Shown here piece by piece: positions 11,661 through 31,016 of a DNA stretch of 64,000 bases; the stretch's first letter is position 1; each line of letters begins with the position of its first letter. The stretch is from a virus, in the IMG/VR virus record IMGVR_UViG_3300044911_003339, positions 32,001 through 96,000 of that record, one strand, 5' to 3'. Position numbers and translations under genes: made by a program. The notes under the pieces are model-generated. The model was not told the DNA's origin and did not search any database. It saw only the letters and a program-made list of their open reading frames with translations.

Positions 11661-13460
11661 ATGGGCCTGTTCGACAAGTTCAAGGATGGATTCGAAGCGC
11701 TCGCGAAGGCGCTCGGCGAATCCGAGGAAGACGGCGAGGACATCCCCTTCGACAAGATGCGGGATGCCCTCGTGCGTTCAGGTCTCGCGGAACCGACGGA
11801 GGAGAAGCCGCGCGCGCTCTTCCACGATCCCTACGCGGTCACGGACTGGGGAGGCTGGCGAGAGCGACCGTCGTCGATGACGTACGAGACGCTTCGCATG
11901 ATGAGCGTGAAGAACACGGTCATCGCCTCCATCATCCAGATCCGGTGTAATCAGGTCGCGCAGTTCGGTCGGCCTCAGCAGGGCCCGTACGACAAGGGCT
12001 ACCGGATCATCCCGCGCGACAGGCGGGACAAGAAGAAGGTGCTCACGCCCGCGGAGAAGAAGCAGGCCGCGGAGATCGAGCGGATGCTGGAGACGACGGG
12101 CTTCCTCCTGCCCGGCGAGAAGCCCGCGGATCGCGACAGCTTCCGCACCTTCTTGCGGAAGGCCACGCGCGACATCCTCACCTACGACCAGTGGGCGTTC
12201 GAGAAGATTCGCGACCGCAAGGGTCGCGTCTCGCGCTTCATCGCGCTCCCCTCAGAGAGCATCCGGCCGGCGAGCGCGGACATCGAGCACATGGACGTGA
12301 AGTCCCTGCGCGAGCGCGTCTCGCACGTCCAGGTCTACGAGGACACGCCGATCGCCGAGTTCAGCCCCGAGGACATCGCGTGGTGCGTGATGAATCCTCG
12401 CTCCGACCTGCGCGCGAACGGCTTCGGCTTCTCGTACATCGAGATGCTCGTCTCGCTCGTGACCGCGTGGCTCTACGGGTTCGAGTACAACCAGCGATTC
12501 TTCATGCAGGGCAGCGCCATCAAGGGCATCCTGAACGTGAAGGGCGCGATTCCCGATCGTCAGCTTCGTGCGTTCCGACGCATGTGGTATTCGATGGTCT
12601 CGGGCGTGAGCAACGCGTGGAAGACGCCGATCCTCAACAGCGAGGATCTCCAGTGGGTCCCGCTCCACGTGAACAACCGCGAGATGGAGTACGGGCAGTG
12701 GATGGACTGGCTCACGAAGCTCACGTGCGCCGTGTTCGGAATCGATCCCGTCGAGATCAACTTCATCTTCGGCAACAGCGGGCAGTCGTCGTCGCTGAAC
12801 CAGTCGCGCCCGAACGCGGCGGAGGTCCAGGAGTCGAAGGACAAGGGCCTCGTGCCTCTCATGGACCACATCGCCGACAACCTGAACATGCACATCATCT
12901 GGGAACTCGCACCAGATTTCGAGTTCGCCTTCACGGGCTTCGACGCGCAGGCCGAGGAGAAGGAGCAGGAGGGTCGCATCAAGGCGGTCACGAACTACAA
13001 GATGATCGACGAGGTGCGCGCGCTCTACGAAGACGATCCGCTGCCGAACGGCATGGGCCAACTGATTCTGAATCCGACCTACATGCAGTGGGCGATGCAG
13101 AAGGAGCAGGCCGCGATGGGCGGACCTCCCGGTGGAGGTGAGGGCGACATGGGCATGGGCGATCCCGACGCGCTGCCCTCCACAGCACCGGGCAACGACG
13201 AGGAAGACCTCGCAGGGCCTCCCCAGAAGGGCCCGCCCAAGCCCGGCCAGCCCCCGAAGGGTCCGCAGGGCCCGCAACCCCCGAAGGGCGCGCAGAAGCC
13301 CCCAGGGAAGCCCTTCGGCTCCCCCGGTGAGGAAGCGCTCCAGGCGTCAGCCTTCGTCGAGCGCACGGCGCGTGGCATCCTCCGCAAGTCCCGCGTACAC
13401 ACGCGCACCGAAGGCGGGCGGGAAATCATCGACATCGAACTGCCGGAGGATCCGACATGA
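11661..13460 (+). CDS. Portal protein
   Basis: FLRKATRDILTYDQ.AFE, NPRSD..GFG.S.IE, YN.RFF.QG..KGIL, G..NAWK.PI, DP.EINF motifs of SPO1-like portals; Pro-rich tail. Confidence 0.92.
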   Translation: MGLFDKFKDGFEALAKALGESEEDGEDIPFDKMRDALVRSGLAEPTEEKPRALFHDPYAVTDWGGWRERPSSMTYETLRMMSVKNTVIASIIQIRCNQVAQFGRPQQGPYDKGYRIIPRDRRDKKKVLTPAEKKQAAEIERMLETTGFLLPGEKPADRDSFRTFLRKATRDILTYDQWAFEKIRDRKGRVSRFIALPSESIRPASADIEHMDVKSLRERVSHVQVYEDTPIAEFSPEDIAWCVMNPRSDLRANGFGFSYIEMLVSLVTAWLYGFEYNQRFFMQGSAIKGILNVKGAIPDRQLRAFRRMWYSMVSGVSNAWKTPILNSEDLQWVPLHVNNREMEYGQWMDWLTKLTCAVFGIDPVEINFIFGNSGQSSSLNQSRPNAAEVQESKDKGLVPLMDHIADNLNMHIIWELAPDFEFAFTGFDAQAEEKEQEGRIKAVTNYKMIDEVRALYEDDPLPNGMGQLILNPTYMQWAMQKEQAAMGGPPGGGEGDMGMGDPDALPSTAPGNDEEDLAGPPQKGPPKPGQPPKGPQGPQPPKGAQKPPGKPFGSPGEEALQASAFVERTARGILRKSRVHTRTEGGREIIDIELPEDPT

Positions 13461-16046: not shown

Positions 16047-19000
16047 TCTCGTGAAGAGCGGAGGTCCGTACATCGGGCCGAAGGGCGGTGTGTGGGCCGA
16101 CCCGCAGCACACGGTGCCGTGGAAATCGGATCATGAGGACACCACCTCTCACTTGTTCCACTCCACGCCCGCGTACGCGATGAGCCGGATCAAGCGGGAA
16201 GGTCTTGCTCCGCGCAAGGGCGCAGGTCTCTTCCAGCACGGCGGCTACGATCTGCACTCGCAAGGCAAGGTGTTCCTCTCGAACAACCTCTACGCGGCGA
16301 AGCAGTGGCACAGCAAGGTCGAGGCTCAACTCGAACACCACCACGATAATCCGAAGCACCACGTTGCAGTCATGCTTCGTGTGAAGCCTCGGGAGACGCA
16401 TCTCGACGATGTTGGAGACCGCGATGTGAGCGGCTCTCGCTTCGTGCGCGACGTTGTGCCTGCAACCGACATCGAGTTCTTCCACGAAGGTACGAAGCGC
16501 TGGAAGCCGGTGAAGGATTACAAGCACGGCACGCACGGTATCCCGGACGACCACTACGAAGCTCACGCGCCGCGCGACGAAGAGGCAGACGCCGCCGAGA
16601 AGGCCGCAGCGAAAGAGGCACGACGCGCGAAGCGCGAAGCCGAGGAGCAGGCGACTCGCGCGCGGCTCGCGGCGCTCCAGGAGGAGCGCGCGAAGCGCGA
16701 GGCTGCGGAAGCGCAGGTTCACTTCAGGGATTCTGACGAAGGCAAGGCAATCCTCACGCGCTGGAAGGGCCTCTCCCCCGAAGAGCGTCAGGCGAAGGCG
16801 AAGCGCATCCTCGACGCGCCCCGCCCTTTCCCCGGCGCTCCCTCGATGCTGTCGCTCGGGCAGCGAGGCGAGGTGTGGCGCGAAGCTCTCGGAGTCGATG
16901 AGAAAGGGAATCTCGTGAAGTCGCGATTCATCATCAAGGCAGGCCCCTCAGGTGGGGGTTGGATGCCGATCCCCGGAGGCCACCACGGAGGGCTTCGGCG
17001 ACGACACGGCGCGGGCTGGGAGTACTGGTACCCGAACGGAGCCCCGCACTTCGTGCTCCGCGAGCAGAAGCACCCCGAGGAGCAGCACGGGCACGAGCAG
17101 ATCGACCCGGAGCCCTCGCACTGGGCCCTCGTCACGCCCGGCCCCGGCCTGCCCCCGGTCGGGTGGACCGCGGGCGGCGTGAACCCGCACGACACGAAGA
17201 CCCCCGTGAAGGAGGCCGGTGTCTCGGGGAAGCTCTACCGCATCAAGAATCCGCACATCCGAGAAGGCTGGGCGCTGCTCACCGACGTGCGCTCGGGCGA
17301 GGACCACATGGTCCAGCACGACCGCGTGATGCCCGTTCGGTGGCTTTCGCCCGAAGAGAGGGCTCTCCAGGGCTCTACAGAGCCTCAGGAGCCGTTTTCG
17401 ACCTGGAAGCCAGGGGTGGGTCCCTCCAAGCGCCCGAGCGGCGGAGGGGCGTCTGAGGGCAAGCGGATGCCCTCCTTCCCCGACTCCCGAGCGCTGCCCG
17501 GAACCGAGACGCACAAGCTGGAGAACGGCGCGTACGTCTGGCGCAAGGTCACGCGGTACGAAGCCGACGAGGACGGCACCACTCGCAAGGTCGAGCGGCT
17601 CGCGCCTGGAATCCCCGACTCCGACAAGATCGCGCTCATCGCAGAGTACGAGGGCCTCGTCGCCAAGACGGCGAAGCGCGTGCGCAGCGCGTTCGGGCTC
17701 AGCGCCCGCCTCTCCACCGGCCCCGGTCAGCGCACGGTGGACGACACGCTCGTCGAGCTTCGGCAGGCCGGCGTGGAGGGTCTGCTCCACGCCATCGACA
17801 GCTATCGCCCCGTGGGCCCGTTTGCAGCGCACGCCCAGCAGTACGTTCGCGATTACGCGCGTCTCCACGCCGCACGGGAGTTCGCGGGAGGCATCGCGAT
17901 CCCGCGGCGGCATGCGCGCCTGCTCTCGTCCTACATCGCGGCCCGCGCAGAGGCCGCGCGCGTGAGCGGAAGCCACGACCCGAGCCCCGAGGTGGTCGCG
18001 GAGTTCTGGAAGCCGAAGAAGCGGGACCTGCACTCGGGCCTCTCGCCCGAGGAAGGCGGAGGAACGATTCCTCTCGCTGGCTACACGCTGAAGCGCAAGA
18101 CGACCTCGACCGATCCCGAGACGGGCAAGAAGAAGACGACCGTCGAGGGCGAGGACGTGGTGCAGCAGCCCGGCCGCCTGGAGTGGGCGCAGCAGTTCCA
18201 CGCGTTCCTCGTCGGGCAGGGAGGCATGGCGGACATCGACGAGCAGGCCGCGCTGTTCCCCGGCCTCGGCGTCGGCACGGGGCTCGGCGCGGACGAGCGC
18301 ATCGCCGTGCGCGAGGCGATGATGCGCGCGCTCCCTCCCGACGGGACGATCGTCACGGTCCAGGCGGGCCCGCAGGCCCAGTTCCGCGGCGAGACCTGGA
18401 AGGCGATCGACCTCGCCCTCGGGCTCTCGTCGGGCGATCCGCTGCCTCTCGACGAAGTGGTCCGTCGCGTGCCCGTCGAGGGATCGCGCGGAGGTGAGTG
18501 GAAGCGTCTCGGAAGCTCGCGAGCGCGCGCCGCGATCGAGGCGCTCATCCGCGACGGCCTGAACACGGTCGCGCGTCACCTGCGAGGCGACGAGGACCGA
18601 GCAGCGTCGCTCGCGCAGGCCCTCGTGACGAAGCTCGTGCCGACCGAGGCTCCGAAGGAGCGGCTCCCCACGATGCGAGAGCGAATCCGCGCTGCGATGG
18701 CCCGCATCACCCCGGCCGAGGTGCAGCGCTGGCGCGAGGAGACGCGAGCGCGCTACCCCGAGCGGCCCGACATCGGCCGACGGATGTCTCGTGTCACCGA
18801 TTCCGAAGCGAAGCGCCGCATCGTCGAGGAGCGCATCGCCGCAGCCCCGCTCACGCCCGAGATGCACGAGGCGATGCTCCGCACGATGACGGCGATTCGC
18901 CAGGGCGTCTCGGCCTCGGGCCAGAACGTCTTCGGCGTCGTGGACCCGAAGGGGTCGAAGAAGAGCCTGCGCGTGCACTCGCTCTCCAAGGCCGGCGACC

Positions 19001-19137
19001 ACGGCGCGTCCGATTCGGCTATGGTCGGGGAGTGGCTCCGGTTCCCGGAGCTTTCGCGACTTCGCTGGGCGAGCGAAGATCCGCTCGTGCACGCTCCGAC
19101 GATCGCTCGCGCACGGTTCGATTCCATCATCGGGTGA
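16024..19137 (+). CDS. Polyvalent protein: ADP-ribosyltransferase/Tpt1-like domain + sigma70-like regions 2 and 4
   Basis: LFHST....I..EGL.P, VFLS, MLRV, VP..DI (ART fold); LV...AKR, EL.QAG.EGLL.AI.SY....F..HA..YVR, I.IP (sigma region 2); LGL....L.L.EV (region 4-like). Confidence 0.7.
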   Translation: MAILKIADLVKSGGPYIGPKGGVWADPQHTVPWKSDHEDTTSHLFHSTPAYAMSRIKREGLAPRKGAGLFQHGGYDLHSQGKVFLSNNLYAAKQWHSKVEAQLEHHHDNPKHHVAVMLRVKPRETHLDDVGDRDVSGSRFVRDVVPATDIEFFHEGTKRWKPVKDYKHGTHGIPDDHYEAHAPRDEEADAAEKAAAKEARRAKREAEEQATRARLAALQEERAKREAAEAQVHFRDSDEGKAILTRWKGLSPEERQAKAKRILDAPRPFPGAPSMLSLGQRGEVWREALGVDEKGNLVKSRFIIKAGPSGGGWMPIPGGHHGGLRRRHGAGWEYWYPNGAPHFVLREQKHPEEQHGHEQIDPEPSHWALVTPGPGLPPVGWTAGGVNPHDTKTPVKEAGVSGKLYRIKNPHIREGWALLTDVRSGEDHMVQHDRVMPVRWLSPEERALQGSTEPQEPFSTWKPGVGPSKRPSGGGASEGKRMPSFPDSRALPGTETHKLENGAYVWRKVTRYEADEDGTTRKVERLAPGIPDSDKIALIAEYEGLVAKTAKRVRSAFGLSARLSTGPGQRTVDDTLVELRQAGVEGLLHAIDSYRPVGPFAAHAQQYVRDYARLHAAREFAGGIAIPRRHARLLSSYIAARAEAARVSGSHDPSPEVVAEFWKPKKRDLHSGLSPEEGGGTIPLAGYTLKRKTTSTDPETGKKKTTVEGEDVVQQPGRLEWAQQFHAFLVGQGGMADIDEQAALFPGLGVGTGLGADERIAVREAMMRALPPDGTIVTVQAGPQAQFRGETWKAIDLALGLSSGDPLPLDEVVRRVPVEGSRGGEWKRLGSSRARAAIEALIRDGLNTVARHLRGDEDRAASLAQALVTKLVPTEAPKERLPTMRERIRAAMARITPAEVQRWREETRARYPERPDIGRRMSRVTDSEAKRRIVEERIAAAPLTPEMHEAMLRTMTAIRQGVSASGQNVFGVVDPKGSKKSLRVHSLSKAGDHGASDSAMVGEWLRFPELSRLRWASEDPLVHAPTIARARFDSIIG

Positions 19138-19145
19138 GGTTCTCC

Positions 19146-19490
19146 ATGAAGAGGTTCTCCATCGACCCCGCCACGCTGCCGACCACATGGCGGGTCGGGC
19201 GGCGTGTCGGCAATAGCGGGCTGGAGCACGCCTTCGATCTCCGCCGTCGGGATGACGGCGGAATCTCCATCTCGAACGTCGAGCACCCGCTCACGGAGAC
19301 CGAGCGCACCATGCTGCTCTCGCACTTCGGCAAGGCGCGCGTCGTGACGATCGGAGGCGAGGCCGACAACGGCGCGCTCGTGACGACGATGCAGCGCCAC
19401 GAGCCGGGGGAGATCGAGAACTTCGTGGAGGCGGTCTACTCGCTGCCCTCACCCTTCATGGTGATGCCGAACGCTCGGAGGGAGACATGA
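19146..19490 (+). CDS. Hypothetical protein (114 aa)
   Basis: SD GAGGT before ATG 19146; ATGA-coupled to the next gene. Confidence 0.65.
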   Translation: MKRFSIDPATLPTTWRVGRRVGNSGLEHAFDLRRRDDGGISISNVEHPLTETERTMLLSHFGKARVVTIGGEADNGALVTTMQRHEPGEIENFVEAVYSLPSPFMVMPNARRET

Positions 19491-22400
19491 GCCGGTTCGT
19501 GATTCCTGCGCTCCGCGCCGCACTGCCGGACGCCCTGGCGAAGTCGTTCCAGCGAGGCCCGCTCGCGCAGCACAAGTACCTGAAGCGAGAGCCCTACTTC
19601 GTCGGGGGCAAGCTGCGCTGGAGGTACTGGTACGCGAGCGACGAGCTTCGCAAGCAGGGCATGGTCGAGCACGACCCCGCGGGCGAGCACGAGCACCACC
19701 TGCTCGCGAACATCGCGGACATCTACGAGCACTTCAAGTCCGTGATCCGCTCGACTGCTGCGACCCCGACGACGGCGATCGAGGGAATCTTCCAGGCCGC
19801 GGTCGATGACCCGAAGGCGCAGCGCGTGCCACAGGTCGCGATGTCTCCGGCGTTCCAGGCGCAGCACGTTCAGCCGTTCATCGACGCAGAGGCGAAGGGA
19901 GCACCTCCCGAGGCGAGCCCGATCGTGCGCGTGCACGACGCGCTGGAGATGGTGCCCGACTACCTCCTGAAGCTCGTGATGGGCGGGACGAAGAACACGA
20001 AGCACCCCGGCTACAAGGGGCTCGGCCCGTACCCCGGTCTCTCCGCGCTCGTGATGAATCGCCAGGAGGACGAGGGAGCGGATTACGCGAACACCGCAGG
20101 TTGGGCGCATCCGAAGACGGGCGAGCTTCACCTGCTTGGCGGCGGCTCGGGCAAGCACGGCAGCGATTCGAGCTACTCCTTCCTCGACGGCGGCGACCCT
20201 GCCACGGCTCCCACGCCGACGGACTTCAACGACGCGAAGGTGCATCTCGAAAAGGTCGTCTGGCACGAGCTTGGGCACCACGTGCACTTCACGCTGGAGA
20301 CCGAGCAGCCGGACGTGATGGATTCGTGGAGGGACCTCTCGACGGGTCCGGGTCCGAAGCCGACGGCCTACGCGCACACGGCATGGTGGGAGGACTTCGC
20401 AGAATCCTTCTCGGGCTGCTTCGCGCTCCCGAAGGTGATGGCGATGCGCTGCCCCGAGCGATACGACTGGATGCGACAGCACGTCCTGAAGTCGCTGCCC
20501 GAGAGGTCCGCGCTCCTGAAGATGTCGGACGAGGAACTCGCGTGGTGGAACAAGAAGAAGACCACGCCGCCCGGCAAGCTGCTGATGCACCTGAAGTCGA
20601 ACGCGCCCGCGCGTCGCTTCGGTGCCTACTACAGCGACAAGGACCAGTTCTTCACGGTCGGCAAGGGAGGGCGCACGGTCTACCTGCGCTTCGGTCCGTC
20701 CGAGCCTGATCAGGAGGACGGCTGGACGCAGGTCCCCTCGACCATCGACCCGGAGACCGGGCTGCCGGTCTACGACGCCGCCTACGGTCCGCGCTTCAAG
20801 GTGCAGGGCAACCTGAAGGAGATGTACGACGAGCGCGGGAATCCGCTCGACGACTTCCAGGCGTTCCTCTACCTCGGACAAGACGACCCCGAGGTGCAGA
20901 AGTTCGTCGCCGACACGATGGAGAAGTACGTCGCGACGTTGCCTCCGAACTCGCCGCAGCCGACGGAGTACGACGCGGTGCAGTGGCTCGCCGCGAAGGG
21001 CGGCGACGAGGCGAAGGCTCTGGAGACGCGTCTGCTCTCGTACAAGATGTACACGTCGCTCGGCTACAAGCGGGAGTCGGAGAAGATTTCCGCGAAGGAA
21101 GCCCACACGACGGAGAAGGAGCGCAAGCGAGTCGAGAAGGAGCGCGCGAAGGGCGGCACGGGCTACCTCGATCGCCACGACTGGGTTCCGGTCGAGATTC
21201 CTCGCTCGGAGTTCGTTCAGAAGTCGGGCACCTTCAAGTTCGACAACGTGCGACCCGCGGAGTACCAGCCGTGGCAGGCCCGCGAGTGGGATCCCGTCAC
21301 GAAGACCTCGCGTGTGAAGACCGTCTACGACCCTGCGGCCGGCAAGGTGGTGCCCGTGCGCACGGCGACGGTCTACGAGCAGGAGAACCCCGACGGCACG
21401 ACGTTCCGTGTGACGGTCGCGGAGGGCGAGCCCTTCTCGATCGGACAGACCATCCTCGCGCCGGTCAGCGTGAAGCTGCCCGACGGTCGCATCTCGCAGG
21501 ACTGGCAGCCCTACAAGCTGTCCGTCGAAGACGGCGAGATGACCGTCACGAACCTCGCGAAGAAGTTCCGCGTCGATCCTGAGGCGCTCCTTCGTCAGAA
21601 TCACCGCTACATGCGCGGGCAGATCACGGACCCGATGCTCGCCGCGCTCCTCAACCCGAGCGGCGAGGTGATTCGCGATCAGTTCGATCTCATGCGCCTC
21701 ATGAAGCTCGCGGCCGAGCAGCCCACGCCGCCGACCGCGTGGGTCAGCGTCCGGGGCAAGACGGGCTCGATCGCTCACTTCAAGGTGAGCTTCGACGGCT
21801 CGGGCCCGCCGCGCGTCGAGGGTCGTCAGTGGGCCGCGAAGCTCGGGAAGGACCCGACCGAACCCATCCGCCTCGATCAGATTCTCGGGAAGGACGACGA
21901 ACTCATCGGCGTCGAGACCGTGCGCGAGCGGAAGGCGAAGGAGGTCAAGATCAAGCCGGGCGGCCTGGTGTGGGTCACCGTCAAGAATCACCTCGGCGAC
22001 GCGAAGCGCGTGATGGCGCGCTACATCGAGAAGAAGTCGTTCGAGGAGAAGGGCAAGAAGAAGAACGCCCACGTCGTCCAGGTGCTCCCCGGTCAGGGCA
22101 CGGGTCTGCCGAAGGACCGCGTGATCGTCACGCGCGTGAACAAGAGCGACGAGAGCCAGATCCCCGGCAAGCCGGAGATTCGTCGGCGCTTCGTCGAGCC
22201 GATGCAGAAGGACGTGCTGCTCTACGCCGACGAGGTGCGGGTCGGCTCGGGCGACCGAGACACGAGCGGCGTGATCAAGATCCTCCCGCCGAAGAACGGC
22301 TCGGTCACGAAGGCGCAACTCGCTGCGATTCCTGGCGTGCGCATCATCGGACTGGAGAAGGCACGGAACAAGAAGGGCGGAGCAGTCACGGAGGAGCTTC

Positions 22401-25400
22401 CCGAGGGCGTCGAGCTTGCCATCTCGCCCCGTGACCTCCCGGCCTTCCGGGAGTACCTCGGCGGCTTCGTGATGGACGAGCGCGTCTCGTCCATGATGGA
22501 CGAGCAGGCTGCCATCATCCGAGAGCGCGCGCTCCAGGTGACCGGAGAGGACTGGCCTCCCGCAGACCAGATCGTCGATGCGGACGGCAACGTGAATCCC
22601 AACGGAGTGCTGCGCGGCATGGTGACGGGCGCGATGGGCATGCAGCCCGGCGCGCATCGCATCGAGGCGCTTCAGCGCGTCGCGATGAACAACGGTCGCC
22701 TCATCGCTGCGCACTTCATGGGCACGGGCAAGACCGCGTTCTCGATCGCAGCCGCGCAGATGATGCGGAACCTCGAATCCCGCGAGCAGCCCGGCAAGCC
22801 GCACCCGAATCAGGTGAAGAAGAAGGTGCTCGCGCTCGTGCCGCTCAACACCGCGAACAACTACGCCGACGAGGTGGAGGTGTTCACCGGAAGGCCCGCA
22901 ACGATCATCGGCTCGGGCTCGCTCGCGGGCAGCGTGCGGATGTTCCGCATGCCGAAGGACCAGGGCCAGAAGAAGAACGAGACGCGCGAGGCGTTCATCG
23001 CGCGCTCGCTCGCCGCATGGAAGGCGGCGGTCAAGACCGACCCGACGCTGTGGAACCCGTGGGCAGACGATTCCCAGATGTGCGTCTGCCCCTACGAGTA
23101 CTTCCGCGACAACGAGGAGTTGATGCGGGCCACGGAGATGTTCGACGGGCTCGTCGTGGACGAGGCGCACAACATCGCACGTGAGAACGAACTCTCACGT
23201 GCGGTCGAGCGCTGGAATCCGAACATGAACATGTTCCTCATGCTCACCGGCACGCCCGTGACGAACACGCTCGACGTGCTCCCGCGTATGGCGAGCCTCG
23301 TGAGCGCGGGCAAGGTGAACCTCGGCACGAAGCAGGAGTTCACGGAGCGCTACCTCGTCGGCTCGGCTGTCGCGAAGGGCGAGGGCGCGAAGAATCCTCC
23401 GAAGACGGACCTCAACCCGCAGCGTGCCGGCGAACTGGCGGCGATCATGCGTCCGCTCATGCACATCGCGACGACGCAGGACGTGAAGGGCAAGACGATG
23501 CCCGCGGTGCTGCTCGACGAGAACAAGCCCGCGCACATGATCGGTCAGCAGGCGCGCATGTACCGACTCTCGATGGCGAAGTTCACGCCCGAGGAGAAGG
23601 CGGCGATCATCGAGAGCGGTGCGGTCGGCACCGACGAGTCGTACGCGCTCGATGACGAGGGTCGCCGCAAGATCGGTGTCGCTCGCTCGATCGCGAACTG
23701 CCTCGCCTACAAGGCACCCGACCAGCGTGAGAATCTCACGTACGAGTCGAAGAGCACCGAGGAGAAGAAGGGCAAGGTCATCGAGAAGACCGTCACCCGC
23801 GTCTTCTCGCTGCCCACGCACGCGATGATGACGACGAAGCGCCCCGAGGGCTGGGGCGGGAAGTGGCCGACGTTCTCGGAGGTCGAGAAGGGAATCGTCG
23901 AGCCGGGCTACTACAACGTGCTCTCGGAGTACTACGAGCGCCTCTTCGGCGTGACGTACGACTCCGTGGAGGGCAAGCCCATCGCGAAGGAGATCCTGGA
24001 CGGCGTGAAGCGCGGCGACTACGTGACGCCGAGCGGCGCGCCGTGGGGTACGGTCGTGAATCCCGATTACGGCCCAGAGGGCATGATCTGTCGCGGCACG
24101 CTCGACCCGGTGACGGGCAAGATCGAGCCGCTGCGGAAGGAGATCGTCGAGAACGGGCAGAAGCGCGTCGTCGAGGTCAAGCCGGGCACGCGCTTCATCC
24201 GCGATCCGAACTCCAAGGCGGCGGGCCTCTTCTACCACGAGGATGACTGGAACTTCACCGGCCGCTTCATCGACTCGGGCGAGGGAGGCGGCGGCGAGGG
24301 TGGAGGCGAGGACGATCCGTCCGACCCGAAGCCCGCGTCTGCCGGCAAGCAGGCCCCGAAGGACCCCTCGCTCTCCATCCAGCGTTCGACGAAGCGCCGG
24401 AAGGAGCGAGAGATGTTCGACCTCGCGGTCACGGCGGGCAACGCGAAGAGCGACGAACTGGAGCAGTACATCCACAACGCGCTTCGCGACGACAACCTCG
24501 GGCCCGATCAGCAGTTCATCCTCTTCGGGAATCGCATCGGCTCTTCCTTCCGCACGATGGAGAGCAAGCTCCGCACGATGGGATTCCAGGACGTGAACGA
24601 AGCGCTCGGGCACCCCGAGTGGAGCACGGCCGAGGACAAGGCGATGATGCCTCGGAAGTTCTTCGTGACGTACGCGGGCAAGGGAGCAACGCTCGGCGAC
24701 CGCGACATCAACTCGGAAATCTTCCGACAGAAGCTCGACCAGTTCGGCCACAAGACCGGGCAGTCGATGTTCGTCTTCCGCACGCTCAACGGCGGCACGA
24801 AGAAGCCACCCAAGGTCGGCGAGATGCGCGAGGGCTGGAGCCGTGGCCAGCGGAAGCGCATCGCCGACGCTCTCGCGGAGCCCACGCGCAAGACGGCCGA
24901 GGGCAAGCCTGCGGGCCTGGAGGTGCCGATGCGCGTGACGAGCGTCGAGGTCGATGGTCGCATCGAGCAGCGGTACCTCTACGAGTCGGACATGAAGCCG
25001 AAGGATCGCGCAGAGTTCCTCCGGCTGGAGAAGGAGCGCCGCGGCGCGGACAAGGCGCGCAAGCAGGCGATCGACGGCGAGATGCGCGCGCTCGCCGACC
25101 GCTACTGGAGCGACCGGATTCCTCTGTCCGATCACTACCAGTACGTGCTGAACAACACGCAGATCATGGTGGCGACCGACGCCGCGAACGTCGGCCTCAA
25201 CTGGCCTGCTCCCAAGCTCGTCATGTACGACTCGCTCTTCTCGCCGATGGACGAGTGGCAGCGCATGACGCGTGCGGCCCGCATGCTCGACGCAGCGGTC
25301 ACCGGACCCGCGAAGAAGTACGTCGAGAAGATCGACGCGAAGCTCTCCGAGATGGAGAAGCAGACCGGGCTGAAGGAGTACGGACCAGAATCTTCCCTTC

Positions 25401-26122
25401 AGGCGGTGCAGGACGCGATCGAGTCGCTCCCCGAGGACGAGCGCGCCGAGCTTCTGAACCTGGAGGGAGGAGGCCCCGATCAGATCGTCGAGGCCATCTT
25501 CAGCCGTCGCGCCATGGACAAGATCGCGAAGCTCCGCCCCGAGGTCGGCGCGCATCTCCGGCAGGCCGGCGCTGCGCCTGATCCCGATCGCCCCGAGATC
25601 CGCATCCGTCCATCGGCCATCCAGGAATCCGACGTGACGAACGAGATCATCCGCAAGCACCTCACGCCCTTCGAGCAGCGCGTGCTCCGAGGACGCATGT
25701 ACCTCGTGGACGTGAAGCGGCTCACGACCTCGTGCGACGTGCCCGAGATGAAGTCGATTCGCATCGAAGACCCGATGACGGGCAAGAAGACCACGGTTCA
25801 GGTCCCGACCGGCAAGTGGTCGGTCGAGGCTCCGACGCAGGCCGAGCGAAGCCAACTCACGCAGGGCCGCATGAAGATGGTGCCCTACGAGAAGGCGATG
25901 AAGGCGTTCCAGAACGCGCAGCCGGTGAAGACCGACTACGACTTCCTCGTGACGCCTCGCGGGAGCGTGCGTAGCTTCTCGATCATGCCTGAGGAGATCG
26001 AGCGCGAGAAGGCGAGTCGCGCGAAGCGCGAGGTCGCGAAGCCGAAGCCCACGAAGACGAAGAAGTCGGAGAGCTACAGCCGATTCTTCATTCCAGCGCG
26101 AACCGCGCGCGGGGAGGCGTGA
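19487..26122 (+). CDS. 2211-aa polyvalent protein: HKY tag + zincin peptidase + LysM-like + SNF2/SWI2 helicase
   Basis: HELGH..TAYA..W.EDFAESF; LAKKFRVDPEALLRQN; HFMGTGKT, LVVDEAH, LTGTP.TN, VATDAANVGLN, YD..FSP....QR..RA.R. Confidence 0.85.
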   Translation: MSRFVIPALRAALPDALAKSFQRGPLAQHKYLKREPYFVGGKLRWRYWYASDELRKQGMVEHDPAGEHEHHLLANIADIYEHFKSVIRSTAATPTTAIEGIFQAAVDDPKAQRVPQVAMSPAFQAQHVQPFIDAEAKGAPPEASPIVRVHDALEMVPDYLLKLVMGGTKNTKHPGYKGLGPYPGLSALVMNRQEDEGADYANTAGWAHPKTGELHLLGGGSGKHGSDSSYSFLDGGDPATAPTPTDFNDAKVHLEKVVWHELGHHVHFTLETEQPDVMDSWRDLSTGPGPKPTAYAHTAWWEDFAESFSGCFALPKVMAMRCPERYDWMRQHVLKSLPERSALLKMSDEELAWWNKKKTTPPGKLLMHLKSNAPARRFGAYYSDKDQFFTVGKGGRTVYLRFGPSEPDQEDGWTQVPSTIDPETGLPVYDAAYGPRFKVQGNLKEMYDERGNPLDDFQAFLYLGQDDPEVQKFVADTMEKYVATLPPNSPQPTEYDAVQWLAAKGGDEAKALETRLLSYKMYTSLGYKRESEKISAKEAHTTEKERKRVEKERAKGGTGYLDRHDWVPVEIPRSEFVQKSGTFKFDNVRPAEYQPWQAREWDPVTKTSRVKTVYDPAAGKVVPVRTATVYEQENPDGTTFRVTVAEGEPFSIGQTILAPVSVKLPDGRISQDWQPYKLSVEDGEMTVTNLAKKFRVDPEALLRQNHRYMRGQITDPMLAALLNPSGEVIRDQFDLMRLMKLAAEQPTPPTAWVSVRGKTGSIAHFKVSFDGSGPPRVEGRQWAAKLGKDPTEPIRLDQILGKDDELIGVETVRERKAKEVKIKPGGLVWVTVKNHLGDAKRVMARYIEKKSFEEKGKKKNAHVVQVLPGQGTGLPKDRVIVTRVNKSDESQIPGKPEIRRRFVEPMQKDVLLYADEVRVGSGDRDTSGVIKILPPKNGSVTKAQLAAIPGVRIIGLEKARNKKGGAVTEELPEGVELAISPRDLPAFREYLGGFVMDERVSSMMDEQAAIIRERALQVTGEDWPPADQIVDADGNVNPNGVLRGMVTGAMGMQPGAHRIEALQRVAMNNGRLIAAHFMGTGKTAFSIAAAQMMRNLESREQPGKPHPNQVKKKVLALVPLNTANNYADEVEVFTGRPATIIGSGSLAGSVRMFRMPKDQGQKKNETREAFIARSLAAWKAAVKTDPTLWNPWADDSQMCVCPYEYFRDNEELMRATEMFDGLVVDEAHNIARENELSRAVERWNPNMNMFLMLTGTPVTNTLDVLPRMASLVSAGKVNLGTKQEFTERYLVGSAVAKGEGAKNPPKTDLNPQRAGELAAIMRPLMHIATTQDVKGKTMPAVLLDENKPAHMIGQQARMYRLSMAKFTPEEKAAIIESGAVGTDESYALDDEGRRKIGVARSIANCLAYKAPDQRENLTYESKSTEEKKGKVIEKTVTRVFSLPTHAMMTTKRPEGWGGKWPTFSEVEKGIVEPGYYNVLSEYYERLFGVTYDSVEGKPIAKEILDGVKRGDYVTPSGAPWGTVVNPDYGPEGMICRGTLDPVTGKIEPLRKEIVENGQKRVVEVKPGTRFIRDPNSKAAGLFYHEDDWNFTGRFIDSGEGGGGEGGGEDDPSDPKPASAGKQAPKDPSLSIQRSTKRRKEREMFDLAVTAGNAKSDELEQYIHNALRDDNLGPDQQFILFGNRIGSSFRTMESKLRTMGFQDVNEALGHPEWSTAEDKAMMPRKFFVTYAGKGATLGDRDINSEIFRQKLDQFGHKTGQSMFVFRTLNGGTKKPPKVGEMREGWSRGQRKRIADALAEPTRKTAEGKPAGLEVPMRVTSVEVDGRIEQRYLYESDMKPKDRAEFLRLEKERRGADKARKQAIDGEMRALADRYWSDRIPLSDHYQYVLNNTQIMVATDAANVGLNWPAPKLVMYDSLFSPMDEWQRMTRAARMLDAAVTGPAKKYVEKIDAKLSEMEKQTGLKEYGPESSLQAVQDAIESLPEDERAELLNLEGGGPDQIVEAIFSRRAMDKIAKLRPEVGAHLRQAGAAPDPDRPEIRIRPSAIQESDVTNEIIRKHLTPFEQRVLRGRMYLVDVKRLTTSCDVPEMKSIRIEDPMTGKKTTVQVPTGKWSVEAPTQAERSQLTQGRMKMVPYEKAMKAFQNAQPVKTDYDFLVTPRGSVRSFSIMPEEIEREKASRAKREVAKPKPTKTKKSESYSRFFIPARTARGEA

Positions 26123-26123
26123 G

Positions 26124-26429
26124 ATGCCGTTGCTCGGGAAGCAGATCGACCCCATCTCGATGTTCCAGGGAGGCCCCTTCGGCGGGGCCCCTCAGGGCGC
26201 GATCGACCTGGAGGCGTTCGAGAAGATCACCAGCGCGGACCTCGCCTTCAAGCGGCTGAACTGGCTCCGCAACTACGACGTGGTGCTGCGCGGCTTTCAC
26301 GCGCCGTCCGACATGCAGCGCATGTGGCGCGCGGTCTTCCGCTCCTCACTCGCCTACGGCTCGCCCATCCCAACCGACATGATTCCGTACGCACGCGCGC
26401 TCGGCGTCGTGATCCCGTCGAGTTCGTGA
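26124..26429 (+). CDS. Hypothetical protein
   Basis: SD GGAGG; typical codon usage; TGATG coupling to the next gene. Confidence 0.7.
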   Translation: MPLLGKQIDPISMFQGGPFGGAPQGAIDLEAFEKITSADLAFKRLNWLRNYDVVLRGFHAPSDMQRMWRAVFRSSLAYGSPIPTDMIPYARALGVVIPSSS

Positions 26430-26656
26430 TGCTGTGTCCTCACTGCGGATCGGCTGTCTTCAAGTCGAGCGGCGACGCCCGGCTGAAGGCGCGCGTCACG
26501 GTGCTCGTGCTCCGCAAGGGCACGGGAGGCGAGGTGCAGGTCGAGACGAACTGCGATTCGTGCAAGGGAGCAATCCTTCTTCCTCTCGTGCTCGCAGCCG
26601 GTCCGTTCGAGATTCGAAAGTCGGACCAGCCGCGACTCGTCGTGAGGCGGACTTGA
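26429..26656 (+). CDS. Zinc-ribbon protein (CPHC...CDSC)
   Basis: 75 aa with two CxxC pairs; coupled start at 26429. Confidence 0.7.
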   Translation: MLCPHCGSAVFKSSGDARLKARVTVLVLRKGTGGEVQVETNCDSCKGAILLPLVLAAGPFEIRKSDQPRLVVRRT

Positions 26657-26716
26657 CGCTGCTGCCGGATTCGTGACACACCATGGACCGTGGCCTGCTC
26701 CCGTGTGGAGCACGAG

Positions 26717-26752
26717 AGGCGACCGAAGGAGAAATCCATCGGTCGCCTTTTT
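26717..26752 (+). terminator. Terminator/attenuator-like hairpin before the prohead protease
   Basis: AGGCGACCGA-aGGA-GAAA-TCCa-TCGGTCGCCT-TTTT. Confidence 0.7.
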
Positions 26753-26782
26753 CGTTCTCGGGTCGCAGATCGCGCGGACGCG

Positions 26783-27538
26783 ATGAAGACCTCTCCCCAG
26801 CGCAAGTTCAGCTTCGACTTCGATGTCGAGGTGTTCGAGAAGGCGAGCCCCGAAGGAACGGAGCGCCGCATCGGCGGAATCGTGTCCACCGATCACCTCG
26901 ATCGTCAGAGCGAGGTGCTGCTTCAGGAGGGCCTGGACTTCTCGCCCTTCCTGAAGGGCGGGTGGTTCAACGACAACCACGAGTCCACGACGGACAGCGT
27001 GATCGGCTACCCGACGGCGGCCGAGCTTCGTCACCTGCCGGACGGCAGGAAGGGCTGGTACGTCGAGGGCTACCTCCTGAAGACCGACCGCGCGAATCGG
27101 ATCTGGGACCTCGCGACCGAGCTTCAGCGCTCGGGCTCGGGGCGCAAGCTCGGATTCTCGGTCGAGGGCTCGATCGCCGAGCGCGACCCGGACGACCCGA
27201 AGAAGGTCCGCAAGGCCGTCGTGCGCGAGGTCGCGATCACGAAGTGCCCGGTCAACACGAACACCGCGCTGCACGTGCTGGCGAAGTCGCTGGCCGTTGG
27301 TGCGGGTGGGCCGCCCTCAGGGCCGACGGGTGACGCGAGCGTGCTCGCGCCCGAGGCTCTGGAGGGCGTGAGTCCCGCGCGCCCGAGTCCGAAGGACCCG
27401 AAGAAGCGCCGCAAGGTCAAGCAGCGGATGAACAAGTCCGAGGCTGTGGATTTCTTGCTGTCGGTTCGGCCTGGGATGTCTCGGGCGCTCGCAGAGCGCG
27501 TGGTCGAGTACGCGATTCGGTGGCACCCGGCCGCCTGA
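26783..27538 (+). CDS. Prohead (capsid maturation) protease
   Basis: IGGIVST..LDRQ.E.L.Q.GLD..F..GWFN.NH, G.YVEG.L, LGFSVEG, EVAIT..PVN; directly upstream of scaffold/MCP. Confidence 0.88.
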   Translation: MKTSPQRKFSFDFDVEVFEKASPEGTERRIGGIVSTDHLDRQSEVLLQEGLDFSPFLKGGWFNDNHESTTDSVIGYPTAAELRHLPDGRKGWYVEGYLLKTDRANRIWDLATELQRSGSGRKLGFSVEGSIAERDPDDPKKVRKAVVREVAITKCPVNTNTALHVLAKSLAVGAGGPPSGPTGDASVLAPEALEGVSPARPSPKDPKKRRKVKQRMNKSEAVDFLLSVRPGMSRALAERVVEYAIRWHPAA

Positions 27539-27553: not shown

Positions 27554-28588
27554 ATGAGCGGAAGCAACGTCGAAGTGGACGTGAGCGGTCTGGAGGCCAG
27601 CCTGAACGATCTCGTGAAGGCAGCCGACGCGACCGATCTCGTCAAGGGCAAGGGCGCAGGCGGTTCGGTGAACCGGGACTACTCGGGTCACATGGACGAG
27701 CGCGGCAAGGTCGGCGGAGGTGCCGCGGGCAGCGGCGACATCGGCGGCATCGACGACATGATGATCGGCAAGATGGGCGAGACCGCGATGTCGGCCCTCG
27801 CGTCGGCGGGCTTCAGCGCGCCGCAGATCGCCGCCTTCATGTCGGGCAAGGCCGCGGACGAGGACGAGGACGAGAGCGACGACGAGGACGAGAGCGACGA
27901 CGAGGACATGAGCGGTCAGGCCGACGGCTCGTTCGTCTCGCACAACCGCCCCGAGCCGACCGGCAAGATGGCTCCTCCGATGCCGCCCTTCCGCGGCAAG
28001 GCGAAGAAGAGCGGCGCGGGCGAGGGCGAGCCCCTCAACAAGTCGCTCGACATGCTCCGGCAGGACCCGGACATCGGCGACGCGATCGACGTGTCGGCGT
28101 ACCTGGAGGCCATGACCGCGCGTGTCGCCGAGCAGATCGACGGGCTCGCGAAGGGCGTCCACGGCGCGCGCACGGAGCAGGCGCAGGTCAACCGCGCGAT
28201 GGCCGCGGCACTCTGGCAGACCGGCAAGCTGGTGAAGAGCCAGCAGGCGATCATCCAGGCGCTCGGCGAGCGTCTCGGAATCGTCGAGGCGACGCCGGTC
28301 CCGCCGAAGGGCGTCCAGGACCCGCGTCGGGCTGCCGCGCTCGCGAAGGGATTCGCGGGCGAGGCGGGCGGGCCGGGCTCGCGTCAGATGAAGAAGAGCG
28401 AGATCCTCGGAGCGCTCTCCTACATGACGCTGGAGAAGGGCATCCGCGAGATCAACGGCCAGAAGACCTCCGAGGTCATCTCGCTGTTCGAGGGCGGCAA
28501 CGTGATCGCCCCCGAGACCATCCAGGCGGTCGAGAGCTTCCTCCGCCAGAACCCGAGCGACGCCGCGAAGGCGCTCTCGTACCGCTGA
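27554..28588 (+). CDS. Scaffolding protein
   Basis: Between protease and MCP; acidic tract, helical, many K|[SAG] sites. Confidence 0.75.
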   Translation: MSGSNVEVDVSGLEASLNDLVKAADATDLVKGKGAGGSVNRDYSGHMDERGKVGGGAAGSGDIGGIDDMMIGKMGETAMSALASAGFSAPQIAAFMSGKAADEDEDESDDEDESDDEDMSGQADGSFVSHNRPEPTGKMAPPMPPFRGKAKKSGAGEGEPLNKSLDMLRQDPDIGDAIDVSAYLEAMTARVAEQIDGLAKGVHGARTEQAQVNRAMAAALWQTGKLVKSQQAIIQALGERLGIVEATPVPPKGVQDPRRAAALAKGFAGEAGGPGSRQMKKSEILGALSYMTLEKGIREINGQKTSEVISLFEGGNVIAPETIQAVESFLRQNPSDAAKALSYR

Positions 28589-28658: not shown

Positions 28659-30083
28659 ATGAACACCACCCCGTTCGTCAGCGCACGCGACTACGGCGGC
28701 TTCGGGTCGAGCAGCCCCGACGAGATCGCCGCACTCAGGAAGGCCCTCTACGCGGGCCAGGACGTGAACGCCCCCGCGGTCGTTCCCGGCGAGGGCTTCC
28801 CGCTCCGCACCGAATCTCTGGAGGCGAGCTTGAAGGTGCTCACCTACGAGATGGACGAGATCAAGCTGTTCAAGACGATCAGCAAGATTCCCGCGACGAA
28901 CACCGTCGAGGAGTTCAACCGTCTCCTGAGCTACGGCCGCGGCGGCAGCCGACGCTTCAACCTCGGCTGGATGACCGAGGGCGATCTTCCCGAGGAGGAG
29001 GACTCGACCTACGAGCGCATCACGATGCAGATCAAGTTCCTCGGCGTGGTCGGCCGCGTGACCCACGTCGCGAACACGATCCGCGCCGCGCACGGCAACG
29101 TGATCGCGATGGAGACGCAGAACAAGACGATGGAACTGCTGAAGCAGTTGGAGAACGCGCTGTTCTTCGGCGATTCCTCGCTCATCCCCGAGCAGATCGA
29201 CGGCCTCGAACGCCTCATCACCGCGGGTGCTCCGAACAACGTCATCGACCTCCGCGGTGGACCGATCACCGAGGAGATCATGAACGACTCGCTGCTCCAG
29301 ATCCGCGACAACTTCGGCATGGCGACCGACTGCTACCTCGGCACGGGCCCGTTCGCGGACCTCGCGAAGCAGGTCTACGACCGTCAGCGCTTCGGCGTCG
29401 CTCCGGCTCCGGGCGTGCTCGGCGCGCAGGTGACGGCGTTCCAGGGCCAGCACGGCAAGGTGTCGATGCACGACCACGTGTTCATCACGGAGGGTCAGAC
29501 GGCGCTCGCTGCGGGCCTCGGCTCGACCACGAAGCGCGCGGCGGCTCCGACCATCACCGTCGCTCCCGCGGCCGGTGCGGCGGCGGGCTCGCTCTTCACC
29601 GCGGCCGACGCGGGCACCTACATCTACCGCGTGGTGGCGGGCAATCGCTTCGGCCTCAGCGTCCCCGTGAACTCGGCGGGCGTGGCGGTCGTCGCGGGCG
29701 ACGGCGTGACCTTCACGGTCGCGGACGGCGGCCCCCCGAGCGCGACCTTCTACGAAATCTACCGCACGACCCCCGGAGGCTCGGCGGCAGATGCTCGTCT
29801 CATGACGCGCGTCGCGCGCACGGGTGCCACGCAGGTCATCACCGACCTCAACGCGGACATCCCCGGCACGTCGAAGGGCTTCATGCTCATGCAGAACGCG
29901 CGCTCGTTCTCGTGGGCGCAGCTTCTCCCGATGACGCGCATCCCGCTCGCCGCGATCGACACGTCGATCCGCTGGGCGCAGGTGCTCTACGGCGGCGTGA
30001 AGATGTACACGCCCGCGAAGAACATCGTGTTCAAGAACATCGGTCGCCTGCCCGGCTCGCTCCCGTCGTCGGTCGTCCCCTGA
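28659..30083 (+). CDS. Major capsid protein
   Basis: ALRK|ALYAG propeptide, LRTESLE..LK.LT, A..TV.E(F)N, EG.L..E.D..Y.R, E..LFFGD, inserted TY.Y.V.A.N..G.S domain; followed by terminator. Confidence 0.93.
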   Translation: MNTTPFVSARDYGGFGSSSPDEIAALRKALYAGQDVNAPAVVPGEGFPLRTESLEASLKVLTYEMDEIKLFKTISKIPATNTVEEFNRLLSYGRGGSRRFNLGWMTEGDLPEEEDSTYERITMQIKFLGVVGRVTHVANTIRAAHGNVIAMETQNKTMELLKQLENALFFGDSSLIPEQIDGLERLITAGAPNNVIDLRGGPITEEIMNDSLLQIRDNFGMATDCYLGTGPFADLAKQVYDRQRFGVAPAPGVLGAQVTAFQGQHGKVSMHDHVFITEGQTALAAGLGSTTKRAAAPTITVAPAAGAAAGSLFTAADAGTYIYRVVAGNRFGLSVPVNSAGVAVVAGDGVTFTVADGGPPSATFYEIYRTTPGGSAADARLMTRVARTGATQVITDLNADIPGTSKGFMLMQNARSFSWAQLLPMTRIPLAAIDTSIRWAQVLYGGVKMYTPAKNIVFKNIGRLPGSLPSSVVP

Positions 30084-30662: not shown

Positions 30663-31016
30663 ATGGCGGCTCGTGGCGACGATCTCCTCGACTTCTACAG
30701 GCGGGATCCCGACAAGGCGATCGTGCTCGCGCTGACGAACGTCTCCGCGCAGATCCCCGCGCCCCTGCCTCCCGGCAGGTACTTGCTCATCCTGCGGGCA
30801 GTCGCAGGCGTGTGGGCCTGGTTCCGGGCGGAGCCCTACGAGGACGGAAGCACCGTGACCGTGGTGGCCGCGCAGGGAATCCCACTTTCCATCGACGGTC
30901 TTCAGACCATCGAGATCAACGTGAGGAAGGGTCACAACGACCGCATCGCCGCCATCACCGAGGCCGGTGTCGGCACGCTCTACATCGTGCCTCTCGCGCG
31001 GCCCGCGCGCCGCTGA
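30663..31016 (+). CDS. Small beta-rich virion protein
   Basis: SD GGAGG; located in the head-completion region. Confidence 0.6.
   Translation: MAARGDDLLDFYRRDPDKAIVLALTNVSAQIPAPLPPGRYLLILRAVAGVWAWFRAEPYEDGSTVTVVAAQGIPLSIDGLQTIEINVRKGHNDRIAAITEAGVGTLYIVPLARPARR

Follow-up and report, generated by a model that had tools for sequence, protein, structure and literature searches.

To our knowledge, peptides that target proteins to the phage capsid have been described in just a handful of model phages (T4 and P1), in which they are N-terminal and have little or no consensus. Short disordered peptides at the N- or C-terminus also bind the inner face of HK97-fold shells and load cargo, as is the case for the encapsulin cargo-loading peptides and the C-terminal tail of the HK97 protease. 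The P1 protein DarB is a head-internal protein of ~250 kDa with a SNF2/helicase-type motor, encoded beside the portal and the prohead protease, and its first 30 residues are sufficient for capsid targeting, according to a report that also cites the T4 capsid targeting sequence and places the small helper gene ulx immediately before darB (PMC9024508). Here we describe the product of a 2211-codon open reading frame (hereafter the giant) in a window of 64,000 nucleotides, which is the whole stretch of DNA analysed and corresponds to bases 32001-96000 of a 105-kb IMG/VR virus record with 66% G+C. The giant carries nearly the same short hydrophobic strand at both of its ends, each beside a predicted lysine cut site. 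The source phage, as judged from its genes, is an uncultured myovirus whose head genes are distantly related to those of Herelleviridae. We favour, with moderate confidence, the reading that the giant is a multi-enzyme polyvalent effector packaged in the head, and that its two ends serve as removable signals for targeting to the capsid.

The peptides of encapsulin cargo stay in place, whereas the tags of the giant are predicted to be removable and have a different motif. A closer likeness is found in the internal proteins and Alt of T4 and in the ejection proteins of phiKZ and SPN3US, in which a short terminal peptide guides the cargo into the prohead and is afterwards cut off by the prohead protease at a simple motif. 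The motif is LxE↓ in T4 and AxE↓ in SPN3US, where the arrow marks the cut here and below (PMC10052503). The propeptides removed from the eight cargo substrates of SPN3US are all N-terminal, the protease being the sole protein there with a C-terminal one (PMC10052503). Those proteases are of the T4 gp21 type and cut after Glu, whereas the protease encoded in the window is probably of the S78 type and its predicted cuts fall after Lys. Furthermore, the tags described here lie at both ends and at internal junctions, and have a recognisable common strand motif. In the T4 capsid targeting sequence, a short peptide at the terminus stands before a site for the prohead protease of the same phage. The giant has this arrangement at the predicted site K19↓A/S20, which is of the same type as K28↓A29 of the capsid protein. 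Giants that combine a zincin with a SWI2/SNF2 ATPase were described among virion genes as polyvalent proteins by Iyer, Burroughs, Anand, de Souza and Aravind in 2017, who predicted that they are injected (PMC5512222). The giant has this architecture, with a zincin, a barrel and a SNF2 ATPase in one open reading frame between the portal and the prohead protease, but it lacks the adenine methylase-LPD36 module that is the usual SNF2 partner, and the terminal tag module is not described there (PMC5512222).

Matching strands and predicted cut sites at the two ends

The giant and its terminal elements, in window coordinates, are the following.

19487..26122, + strand: the giant, an open reading frame of 2211 codons
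19487..19543, + strand: putative N-terminal propeptide, residues 1-19, with the strand SRFVIPA and then LAK19↓S20
19571..19633, + strand: HKY..KR...GGK..W.Y.Y beta-hairpin, the first folded element after the N-terminal cut site
26066..26119, + strand: C-terminal peptide, residues 2194-2211, after KK2193↓S, with the strand SRFFIPA and the ending RGEA

The strand SRFVIPA occupies residues 2-8 (nt 19490-19510) and is followed by LAK↓S at residues 17-20, and SRFFIPA occupies residues 2198-2204 (nt 26078-26098), after KKS at residues 2192-2194. These positions match those given in the first-pass annotation, which had noted nearly the same heptapeptide beside K↓S sites at both ends. Both flaps share a short hydrophobic strand, [RK]-F-hydrophobic-[IV]-P, and each is parted from the folded body by a K↓[SA] site. 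The predicted mature form, residues 20-2193, is expected to have a mass of ~243 kDa and to derive from a 245-kDa precursor. A Shine-Dalgarno-like stretch, GGAGGGAG, lies upstream of the ATG, and the G+C content at third codon positions (GC3) is 0.90.

A search of 5.8 billion protein clusters returned 57 homologues, all of them metagenomic and none with a name; most are full length, and their identity to the giant ranges from 34 to 98%. The family alignment comprises 45 full-length sequences with a mean column identity of 38%. No relative in isolated phages was found by megablast, or when the complete giant was compared by tblastn with 50,697 phage records at E<=1e-5, and a scan of GTDB genomes for a prophage or host clue gave no relative.

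In the 45-sequence alignment, K19 is invariant (45/45), R10 (44/45), A/S20 (43/45) and L17 (41/45) are nearly so, and P7 is present in 32/45. The N-terminal end of the family reads M-(x)-[RK]-F-[VLI]-[IV]-P-[LI]-x-R-[AL]-G ... L-x-K↓[AS]. The C-terminal end consists of a variable Lys/Ala/Pro-rich linker and K-K↓S, with a hydrophobic strand (RFFIP, FYVP, FYIP, RFVV and similar) within a few residues. A hydrophobic strand precedes the N-terminal K↓[AS] site in 50 of 57 proteins, compared with 1.3% of internal windows in the same proteins, and a strand follows a C-terminal K↓[SAG] site within the last 32 residues in 43 of 57, compared with 5% of internal windows; the homologues share ancestry, so that these counts and the next are of non-independent events. 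The pattern [FYLV][FYVIL][IV]P occurs within the first 15 residues of 28 of the 57 proteins, against 0.4% expected. Apart from the strand and its site, the C-terminal tails cannot be aligned, and this suggests that selection acts on these two elements. Poor conservation of the terminal peptides in homologues had been named beforehand as a result that could refute the proposal, and both proved to be conserved family-wide. The terminal strands always lie outside the conserved K↓[SAG] site and would be lost upon cleavage, as had been suggested when they were assigned to removable parts of the protein.

The last four residues of the giant are R-G-E-A (residues 2208-2211, nt 26108-26119). This C-terminal ending, with the variants GDA, GES and FEA, recurs in several lineages that are only ~40% identical overall, such as the homologues P0030, P0031, P0034 and P0045.

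Residues 1-1030 and 1031-2211 were modelled separately with AlphaFold, each from a 44-row alignment, and both halves were predicted confidently, with a predicted local distance difference test (pLDDT) of 83 and 82 and a predicted template modelling score (pTM) of 0.75 and 0.80. Residues 1-27 and 2184-2211 have pLDDT <50, and in these models both flaps are disordered and are not in the fold of the giant. The strands could instead be structural and retained, the ends pairing together or with the opposite half to close the giant compactly, with the K-S and K-A bonds left uncut. The matching strand character of the two ends would suit such an arrangement, and a contact between halves is not visible when the halves are folded separately. 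We regard it as quite improbable, since strand pairing would hardly account for an invariant K19 together with A/S20 and L17, and identical units are found on unrelated small proteins and at polyprotein junctions with sites on both sides. Furthermore, some lineages keep the N-terminal strand without the C-terminal one, and the linkers before the C-terminal tag are long, variable and rich in Lys, Ala and Pro.

Predicted lysine cut sites and the prohead protease

In HK97, the S78-type enzyme gp4 cuts gp5 between K103 and S104. The head proteins of the window in which comparable sites were found, and the protease itself, are encoded as follows.

11661..13460, + strand: portal (phrog_12, 1e-50; Pfam Phage_portal), carrying ALAK↓A at the N-terminal end and, at the C-terminal end, ILRK↓S and then a ...EIIDIEL strand
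26690..27538, + strand: prohead serine protease, probably of the S78 type (phrog_1028, 4e-50), with its true start probably at the Met at ~26783
27554..28588, + strand: probable scaffold, with N-terminal DLVK↓A and DLVK↓G, in a position that matches the scaffold of Bacillus phage SP-10
28659..30083, + strand: major capsid protein (phrog_752, 4e-87), with a predicted maturation cut at ALRK28↓A29 (nt 28740-28745)

The protease is 35% identical to that of SP-10 (E 1e-34); its match to Pfam Peptidase_S78 scores 16.2 bits, below the 21-bit cut-off, whereas the SP-10 protease scores 36.6 bits. The capsid protein is ~35% identical to those of SPO1-like Bacillus phages and 28% identical to Cps of Listeria phage A511 (E 2e-38). 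The A511 record annotates (as a mat_peptide) the start of mature Cps at S24, after ...DALK23, and the A511 K23 site and K28↓A29 of the window lie at a matching distance from a conserved LR.E.L block. We found no open paper with a directly measured Lys cut in Herelleviridae and used the A511 annotation instead. SP-10 shares the K↓ sites of the capsid protein, the scaffold and the portal. Across loci, the capsid site L[RK]K↓AL.AG is kept in 19 and the scaffold site L.[DE]L[VLI]K↓A in 17, and the C-terminal LxK↓S of the portal with its strand is kept across loci and in SP-10.

Among head-module proteins, 8 of 12 have the pattern hydrophobic-x-K-[AS] in their first 50 residues, compared with 4 of 71 other + strand open reading frames (Fisher p 5e-6), and its density is 3.6-fold higher in the head module (4.6 versus 1.3 per 1000 residues). 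Among the hydrophobic-x-K-[ASG] sites in the alignable body of the giant, K19 alone is well conserved and none of the internal ones exceeds 60% conservation, which indicates that the cuts would trim the ends and not dice the giant. Internal dicing was rejected for this reason.

The protease has features of its own. Its N-terminal F.F...V.V.EK↓A looks like a tag but was not counted as a cut site, since in SP-10 the matching segment is the first strand of the S78 fold. In the proteases of locus L017 (5725-6444) and of SP-10 (L025, 7527-8270), an internal K↓S is followed by a stretch that closely resembles the new N-terminus of the capsid protein and reads K↓..AG...PG.GF.LR.ESLE. This capsid-like stretch may be how the protease co-assembles with the shell. 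No such copy of the capsid N-terminal arm was detectable in the protease of the window (26690-27538), where the sequence is too degenerate.

Recurrence of the strand in neighbouring, probable cargo proteins

PHROG and Pfam scans of the window gave the gene order of a 1121-residue Zeta-toxin-like kinase protein, the portal, proteins of 254, 604 and 1037 residues, and the giant; downstream follow a 101-residue protein, a 75-residue zinc-ribbon protein, the prohead protease, the probable scaffold, the major capsid protein and, later, the tail sheath. In SP-10, the portal is directly followed by the protease, the scaffold and the capsid protein, with no cargo cassette between, which indicates that the ~13 kb between portal and protease in the window is an inserted cargo cassette. 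Its position, with the giant, between portal and protease is kept in 23 IMG/VR loci, in which the recurrent order is portal ... giant, 101-residue protein, zinc ribbon, protease, scaffold and capsid protein. In these loci the capsid protein is 70-80% identical and the giant only ~40%. The neighbours considered below are the following.

8259-11624, + strand: 1121-residue protein before the portal, with a Zeta-toxin-like kinase domain (PF06414, 5e-20)
16024-19137, + strand: 1037-residue neighbour, starting MAILKIADLVK↓SGGPYIGPKGG.W
16921..16941, + strand: SRFIIKA strand within the 1037-residue neighbour, lying between LVK↓S and K↓A, with an HKY-like hairpin after it
19146..19490, + strand: previously unlisted gene for a 114-residue protein, filling an apparent 349-nt gap before the giant (GC3 0.90)
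26124..26429, + strand: 101-residue protein ending ...LGVVIPSSS, found in 19 loci, with a conserved C-terminal LG[VI][VI].P and no family
26429..26656, + strand: 75-residue zinc-ribbon protein with the C-terminal tag IRK↓SDQPRLVVRRT, found in 16 loci

Strands related to those of the giant had been listed in four other proteins, and all of them are present: RFVLMKG at 5831, PRLYAR at 8224, PRLVVRR at 26630 (the C-terminus of the 75-residue zinc-ribbon protein) and SRFIIKA in the 1037-residue protein. The last is not terminal, as it lies at about residue 300. The copy of this protein in the window has an extra N-terminal domain, and the strand is internal between two K↓ sites; the orthologues in L006 and L009 are without the upstream domain and begin with M[KR]Y[VI]IP...K↓A. 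In the 75-residue protein, which has weak zinc-ribbon matches only in Pfam, CxxC...CxxC and the C-terminal K↓[AS]..P[RK][LF]V[VA]RR are conserved in the 16 loci. The presence of a strand with a K↓ site at module junctions of polyprotein neighbours suggests that one protease separates the modules and strips the labels.

The hairpin that follows the N-terminal cut site is also a recurrent element. Its residues H29, K30, Y31, R34, G41, Y47 and Y49 are invariant or nearly so in the family alignment, and its strands (residues 33-39 and 42-49) have a pLDDT of 86-88. In the clade, 14 of 16 HKY hairpins are preceded by K[SAG] within 22 residues. Other cargo proteins carry K↓GQRFVVSS...K↓A or KK↓SLPNYFIK↓A just before an HKY hairpin, and the latter is the same in form as the C-terminal tags of the giant family. 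Of 1.84 billion representatives, only 62 proteins matched a profile of the N-terminal module, and these include a sister clade of giants of 2500-2900 residues. In the sister clade, the N-terminal tag reads R-[LF]-G-[LI]-P and the C-terminal tag reads ..LGLPLGG or LVFDL after K↓[AS]. For example, P0101 has MRLGLPG at its start and SMIALGLPLGG at its end, and TIRFGIP at the start of P0056 can be compared with TIRFGLP at the end of P0057. The sister clade thus has a different strand (R-L-G-L-P) at both ends, which indicates that the two ends change together between clades. Literature searches found no description of a module made of a terminal tag, a K↓ site and an HKY hairpin.

The C-terminus of the portal, with its similar element of K↓S plus strand, raises the question of whether the strands act at ejection, as leader and trailer peptides that engage the portal or the tail channel while the unfolded giant threads ahead of or behind the DNA. 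Exit of the cargo must indeed pass the portal. A cut at maturation would, on the other hand, remove the strands before ejection, and tags are also found at internal junctions and on the 75-residue zinc-ribbon protein, places in which a leader for threading would hardly be useful. We therefore consider a role at ejection very improbable.

Further features were noted among the neighbours. The 1121-residue protein begins directly with an HKY hairpin (MMPLGHKYISRKR...) and is likely another packaged effector. The GGPYIGPKGGKW motif of the 1037-residue neighbour is fused to the front of the giant homologue P0018, which shows that modules are shuffled among cargo proteins. The TGA of the 114-residue gene overlaps the ATG of the giant (ATGA), and in 11 loci tblastn found it (27-99% identity) as the gene immediately before the giant, with a stop that overlaps or adjoins the start of the giant. 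The protein has a conserved C-terminal LP.PF..M and no Pfam or PHROG family. Its position resembles that of ulx upstream of darB, and by this analogy it is a candidate chaperone, adaptor or helper of the giant. A 117-residue protein encoded after the capsid gene (30663-31016, + strand) has the C-terminal end ...TLYIVPLARPARR, which is like the tags of the giant; its orthologues keep a hydrophobic strand at the end (LILTPLSR, VYITRVSR), without a preceding K↓ site. Outside the head module, an Arg-rich open reading frame of 135 residues (C1:26802-27209, 4.8-5.2 kb before the window start) ends with ...PSRFFYVREGKRVRLVPA, and this terminal strand resembles the C-terminal tag of the giant.

Enzymatic body and proposed route through the virion

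Three domains were recognised in the body of the giant.

19755..20497, + strand: zincin metallopeptidase domain, residues ~90-337, with HELGH at 20264-20278 and EDFAESF at 20390-20410
21944..22180, + strand: Tudor/SH3-like beta-barrel, residues ~820-898, a weak assignment
22583..25924, + strand: split SWI2/SNF2 ATPase, residues ~1033-2146, with a ~450-residue insert between the lobes
22721-22735, 23159-23170, 23246-23257 and 25259-25285, + strand: SNF2 motifs, respectively Walker A, DEAH, TGTP and motif VI

The peptidase reported in the first-pass annotation is a zincin. Structural alignment with VIA-align gave Z 13.0 (183 residues aligned, root-mean-square deviation 3.4) to the catalytic domain of anthrax lethal factor and Z ~10 to PPEP-2/3, and Foldseek gave a probability of ~1 with E only ~1e-2. 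In the active site, HELGH (residues 260-264) has H260 in 40 of 45 sequences and E261 in 43 of 45, and D303 and E306 are invariant. No Pfam peptidase family was above threshold, and the placement is at the level of the fold. H260 (nt 20264-20266) is replaced by Arg in 5 of 45 homologues, and the catalytic Glu by Gln in two. The peptidase is probably dead in some lineages, as judged from these substitutions, while the tags and the SNF2 motifs persist.

A zincin in the same polypeptide could make the end strands its own pro-segments or substrates, which would occupy or feed its active site and which it would remove by self-processing in place of the prohead protease. Its fold resembles Pro-Pro endopeptidases and lethal factor, zincins whose ligands are extended peptides with proline, and most of the tags have a Pro. 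The catalytic residues are kept in most homologues, and Iyer et al. proposed that zincins of polyvalent proteins process their own polypeptides (PMC5512222). Against this, K↓[AS] sites with strands are also found on proteins without a zincin (the capsid protein, the portal and the zinc-ribbon protein) and in Herelleviridae, which have no such giant, and the site of the capsid protein matches a known maturation cut. The 5 of 45 homologues that lost the first zinc-binding His keep their tags, and AlphaFold did not dock residues 1-27 into the zincin. Self-processing is therefore improbable in our view.

The barrel gave Z 5-7 to many Tudor, chromo and PWWP domains, a range rated as middling by VIA-align. 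The assignment of a split SNF2 ATPase was borne out by a Pfam match, by structural matches over both lobes and by invariant motifs. Pfam SNF2-rel_dom matched the giant at 4.8e-11 (42.7 bits, cut-off 24.9), along with ResIII and Helicase_C. Foldseek gave E 5e-10 to Mot1, INO80, ALC1 and CSB, and structural alignment gave Z 20.4 with 442 residues aligned to ALC1 and similar results for SWR1, ZorD, CSB and INO80, covering both lobes (~445 residues). GTGKT (1079-1083), DEAH (1225-1228), TGTP (1254-1257) and Q1925/R1926/R1929/R1932 are invariant in the 45 sequences. Among isolated-phage records, the sole match of the SNF2 N lobe alone at E<=0.01 was the distant helicase of Bacillus phage 0305phi8-36. 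Inteins (PF14890) with HNH domains (PF13392) are present in the homologues P0013, P0014, P0050, P0053 and P0054, where they split the query alignment in two. Inteins are usual for ATPases under selection and were counted in favour of an intact SNF2 motor.

A LysM-like segment had also been proposed and found no sequence support: Pfam gave no LysM match at E<=0.1 for the whole protein, and no PDB sequence matched residues 652-738. The AlphaFold model contains a strand-helix-helix-strand stretch at residues ~669-713, in which N705 is invariant. The reported lack of a methyltransferase held up, as no such family was found in Pfam or NCBIfam and structural searches of the halves gave only zincin, Tudor-like and SNF2 matches. 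NPDYGPEG (residues 1525-1532, nt 24059-24082) is an invariant block in the beta-rich insert between the SNF2 lobes. It was considered as an (N/D)PPY methylase motif and rejected, since the insert that holds it has no Rossmann fold.

The description of the core as DarB-like stands as an analogy only. The giant shares with DarB its size (~243 kDa when mature), a SNF2 motor, a gene between portal and protease and an N-terminal tag. In contrast to DarB, it has no detectable sequence similarity and no methyltransferase, which is half of the DarB dyad, and carries a zincin instead; for lack of a methylase and of sequence similarity, it is not a member of the DarB family. Its tag is, in addition, also C-terminal and bounded by Lys sites, and one motif is common to several cargo proteins here, whereas the P1 Dar proteins have no consensus signal. 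In these predicted features (both ends, a motif common across cargo, S78-type Lys sites and recurrence at polyprotein junctions), the tags are unlike known cargo signals.

Taking the parts of the favoured reading separately, we consider it quite likely that the giant is packaged in the virion and trimmed at its ends, and somewhat probable that the end strands are the targeting element. Several points weigh on the other side. The relatives are all uncultured, and the cuts at K19 and K2193 are predicted. With the halves modelled apart, a flap docked on the opposite half would be missed. Cargo propeptides are N-terminal in known systems; in SPN3US, the N-terminus is the place of 13 of 14 cuts, and the one C-terminal piece is that of the protease (PMC10052503). 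The C-terminal strand is absent from some lineages (P0048-P0050 and P0095), and a few lineages end right after K↓G, which makes the C-terminal tag dispensable. The C-terminal site (T-K-K↓S) is, by its P3/P2 residues, a poorer match to the hydrophobic-x-K rule. Within the clade of the window, co-variation of Pro between N- and C-terminal tags in independent tree pairs gave no signal, with few informative pairs and little power. Finally, a 10-position profile of the N-terminal tag, run against the proteins of the genome, ranks head-protein termini high (the giant N end first, the C end of the protein at 30663 second, of that at 26124 fourth and of that at 7546 sixth, and the giant C end seventh), but the scores are insignificant, each being too low individually.

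If the ends are capsid-targeting peptides, the strands would dock during prohead assembly, probably by beta-strand addition, on a component of the assembling core or shell, and the giant would be pulled inside. The two tags would give a bivalent hold on a very large cargo. The prohead protease, probably of the S78 type, would then cut after K19 and K2193 and free the mature protein, which would be ejected together with the DNA. The first-pass annotation had named the scaffold as the docking partner. We regard the scaffold as an unlikely partner, the major capsid protein, the protease, the portal and the small conserved neighbours being equally possible. In the host, and by looser reasoning, the zincin may cleave host or co-packaged proteins, and the SNF2 motor, driven by ATP, may track the incoming DNA, where it could remove or obstruct the complexes of restriction and defence, assist the entry of the genome, or act by remodelling transcription complexes. 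Anti-restriction, proposed earlier as the job of the core, is a tentative assignment with DNA entry and transcription takeover as alternatives.

A broader reading is that all head cargo of the clade is addressed by a single modular code, consisting of a strand of 5-7 residues with a Lys cut site. This seems possible to us, at short of even likelihood. The strand with its Lys site would stand at N-termini, at C-termini and between polyprotein modules, with an HKY beta-hairpin at each new N-terminus. One prohead receptor (the scaffold, the inner face of the capsid or a small neighbour, including the 114-residue protein) would read the strand, and the S78 protease would erase it. A strand at either end would suffice to load a 240-kDa enzyme, and the strand would have co-evolved with its receptor between the sister clades (RFVIP versus RLGLP).

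A zincin-SNF2 cargo without the usual methylase suggests that the injected DNA motor would work in another way than DarB. If the proposed role of the end peptides is true, it would show how a 240-kDa enzyme is held in an assembling shell and would provide a compact tag for loading foreign proteins into capsids. Virion cargo would then be predictable from sequence across a whole clade of uncultured phages.

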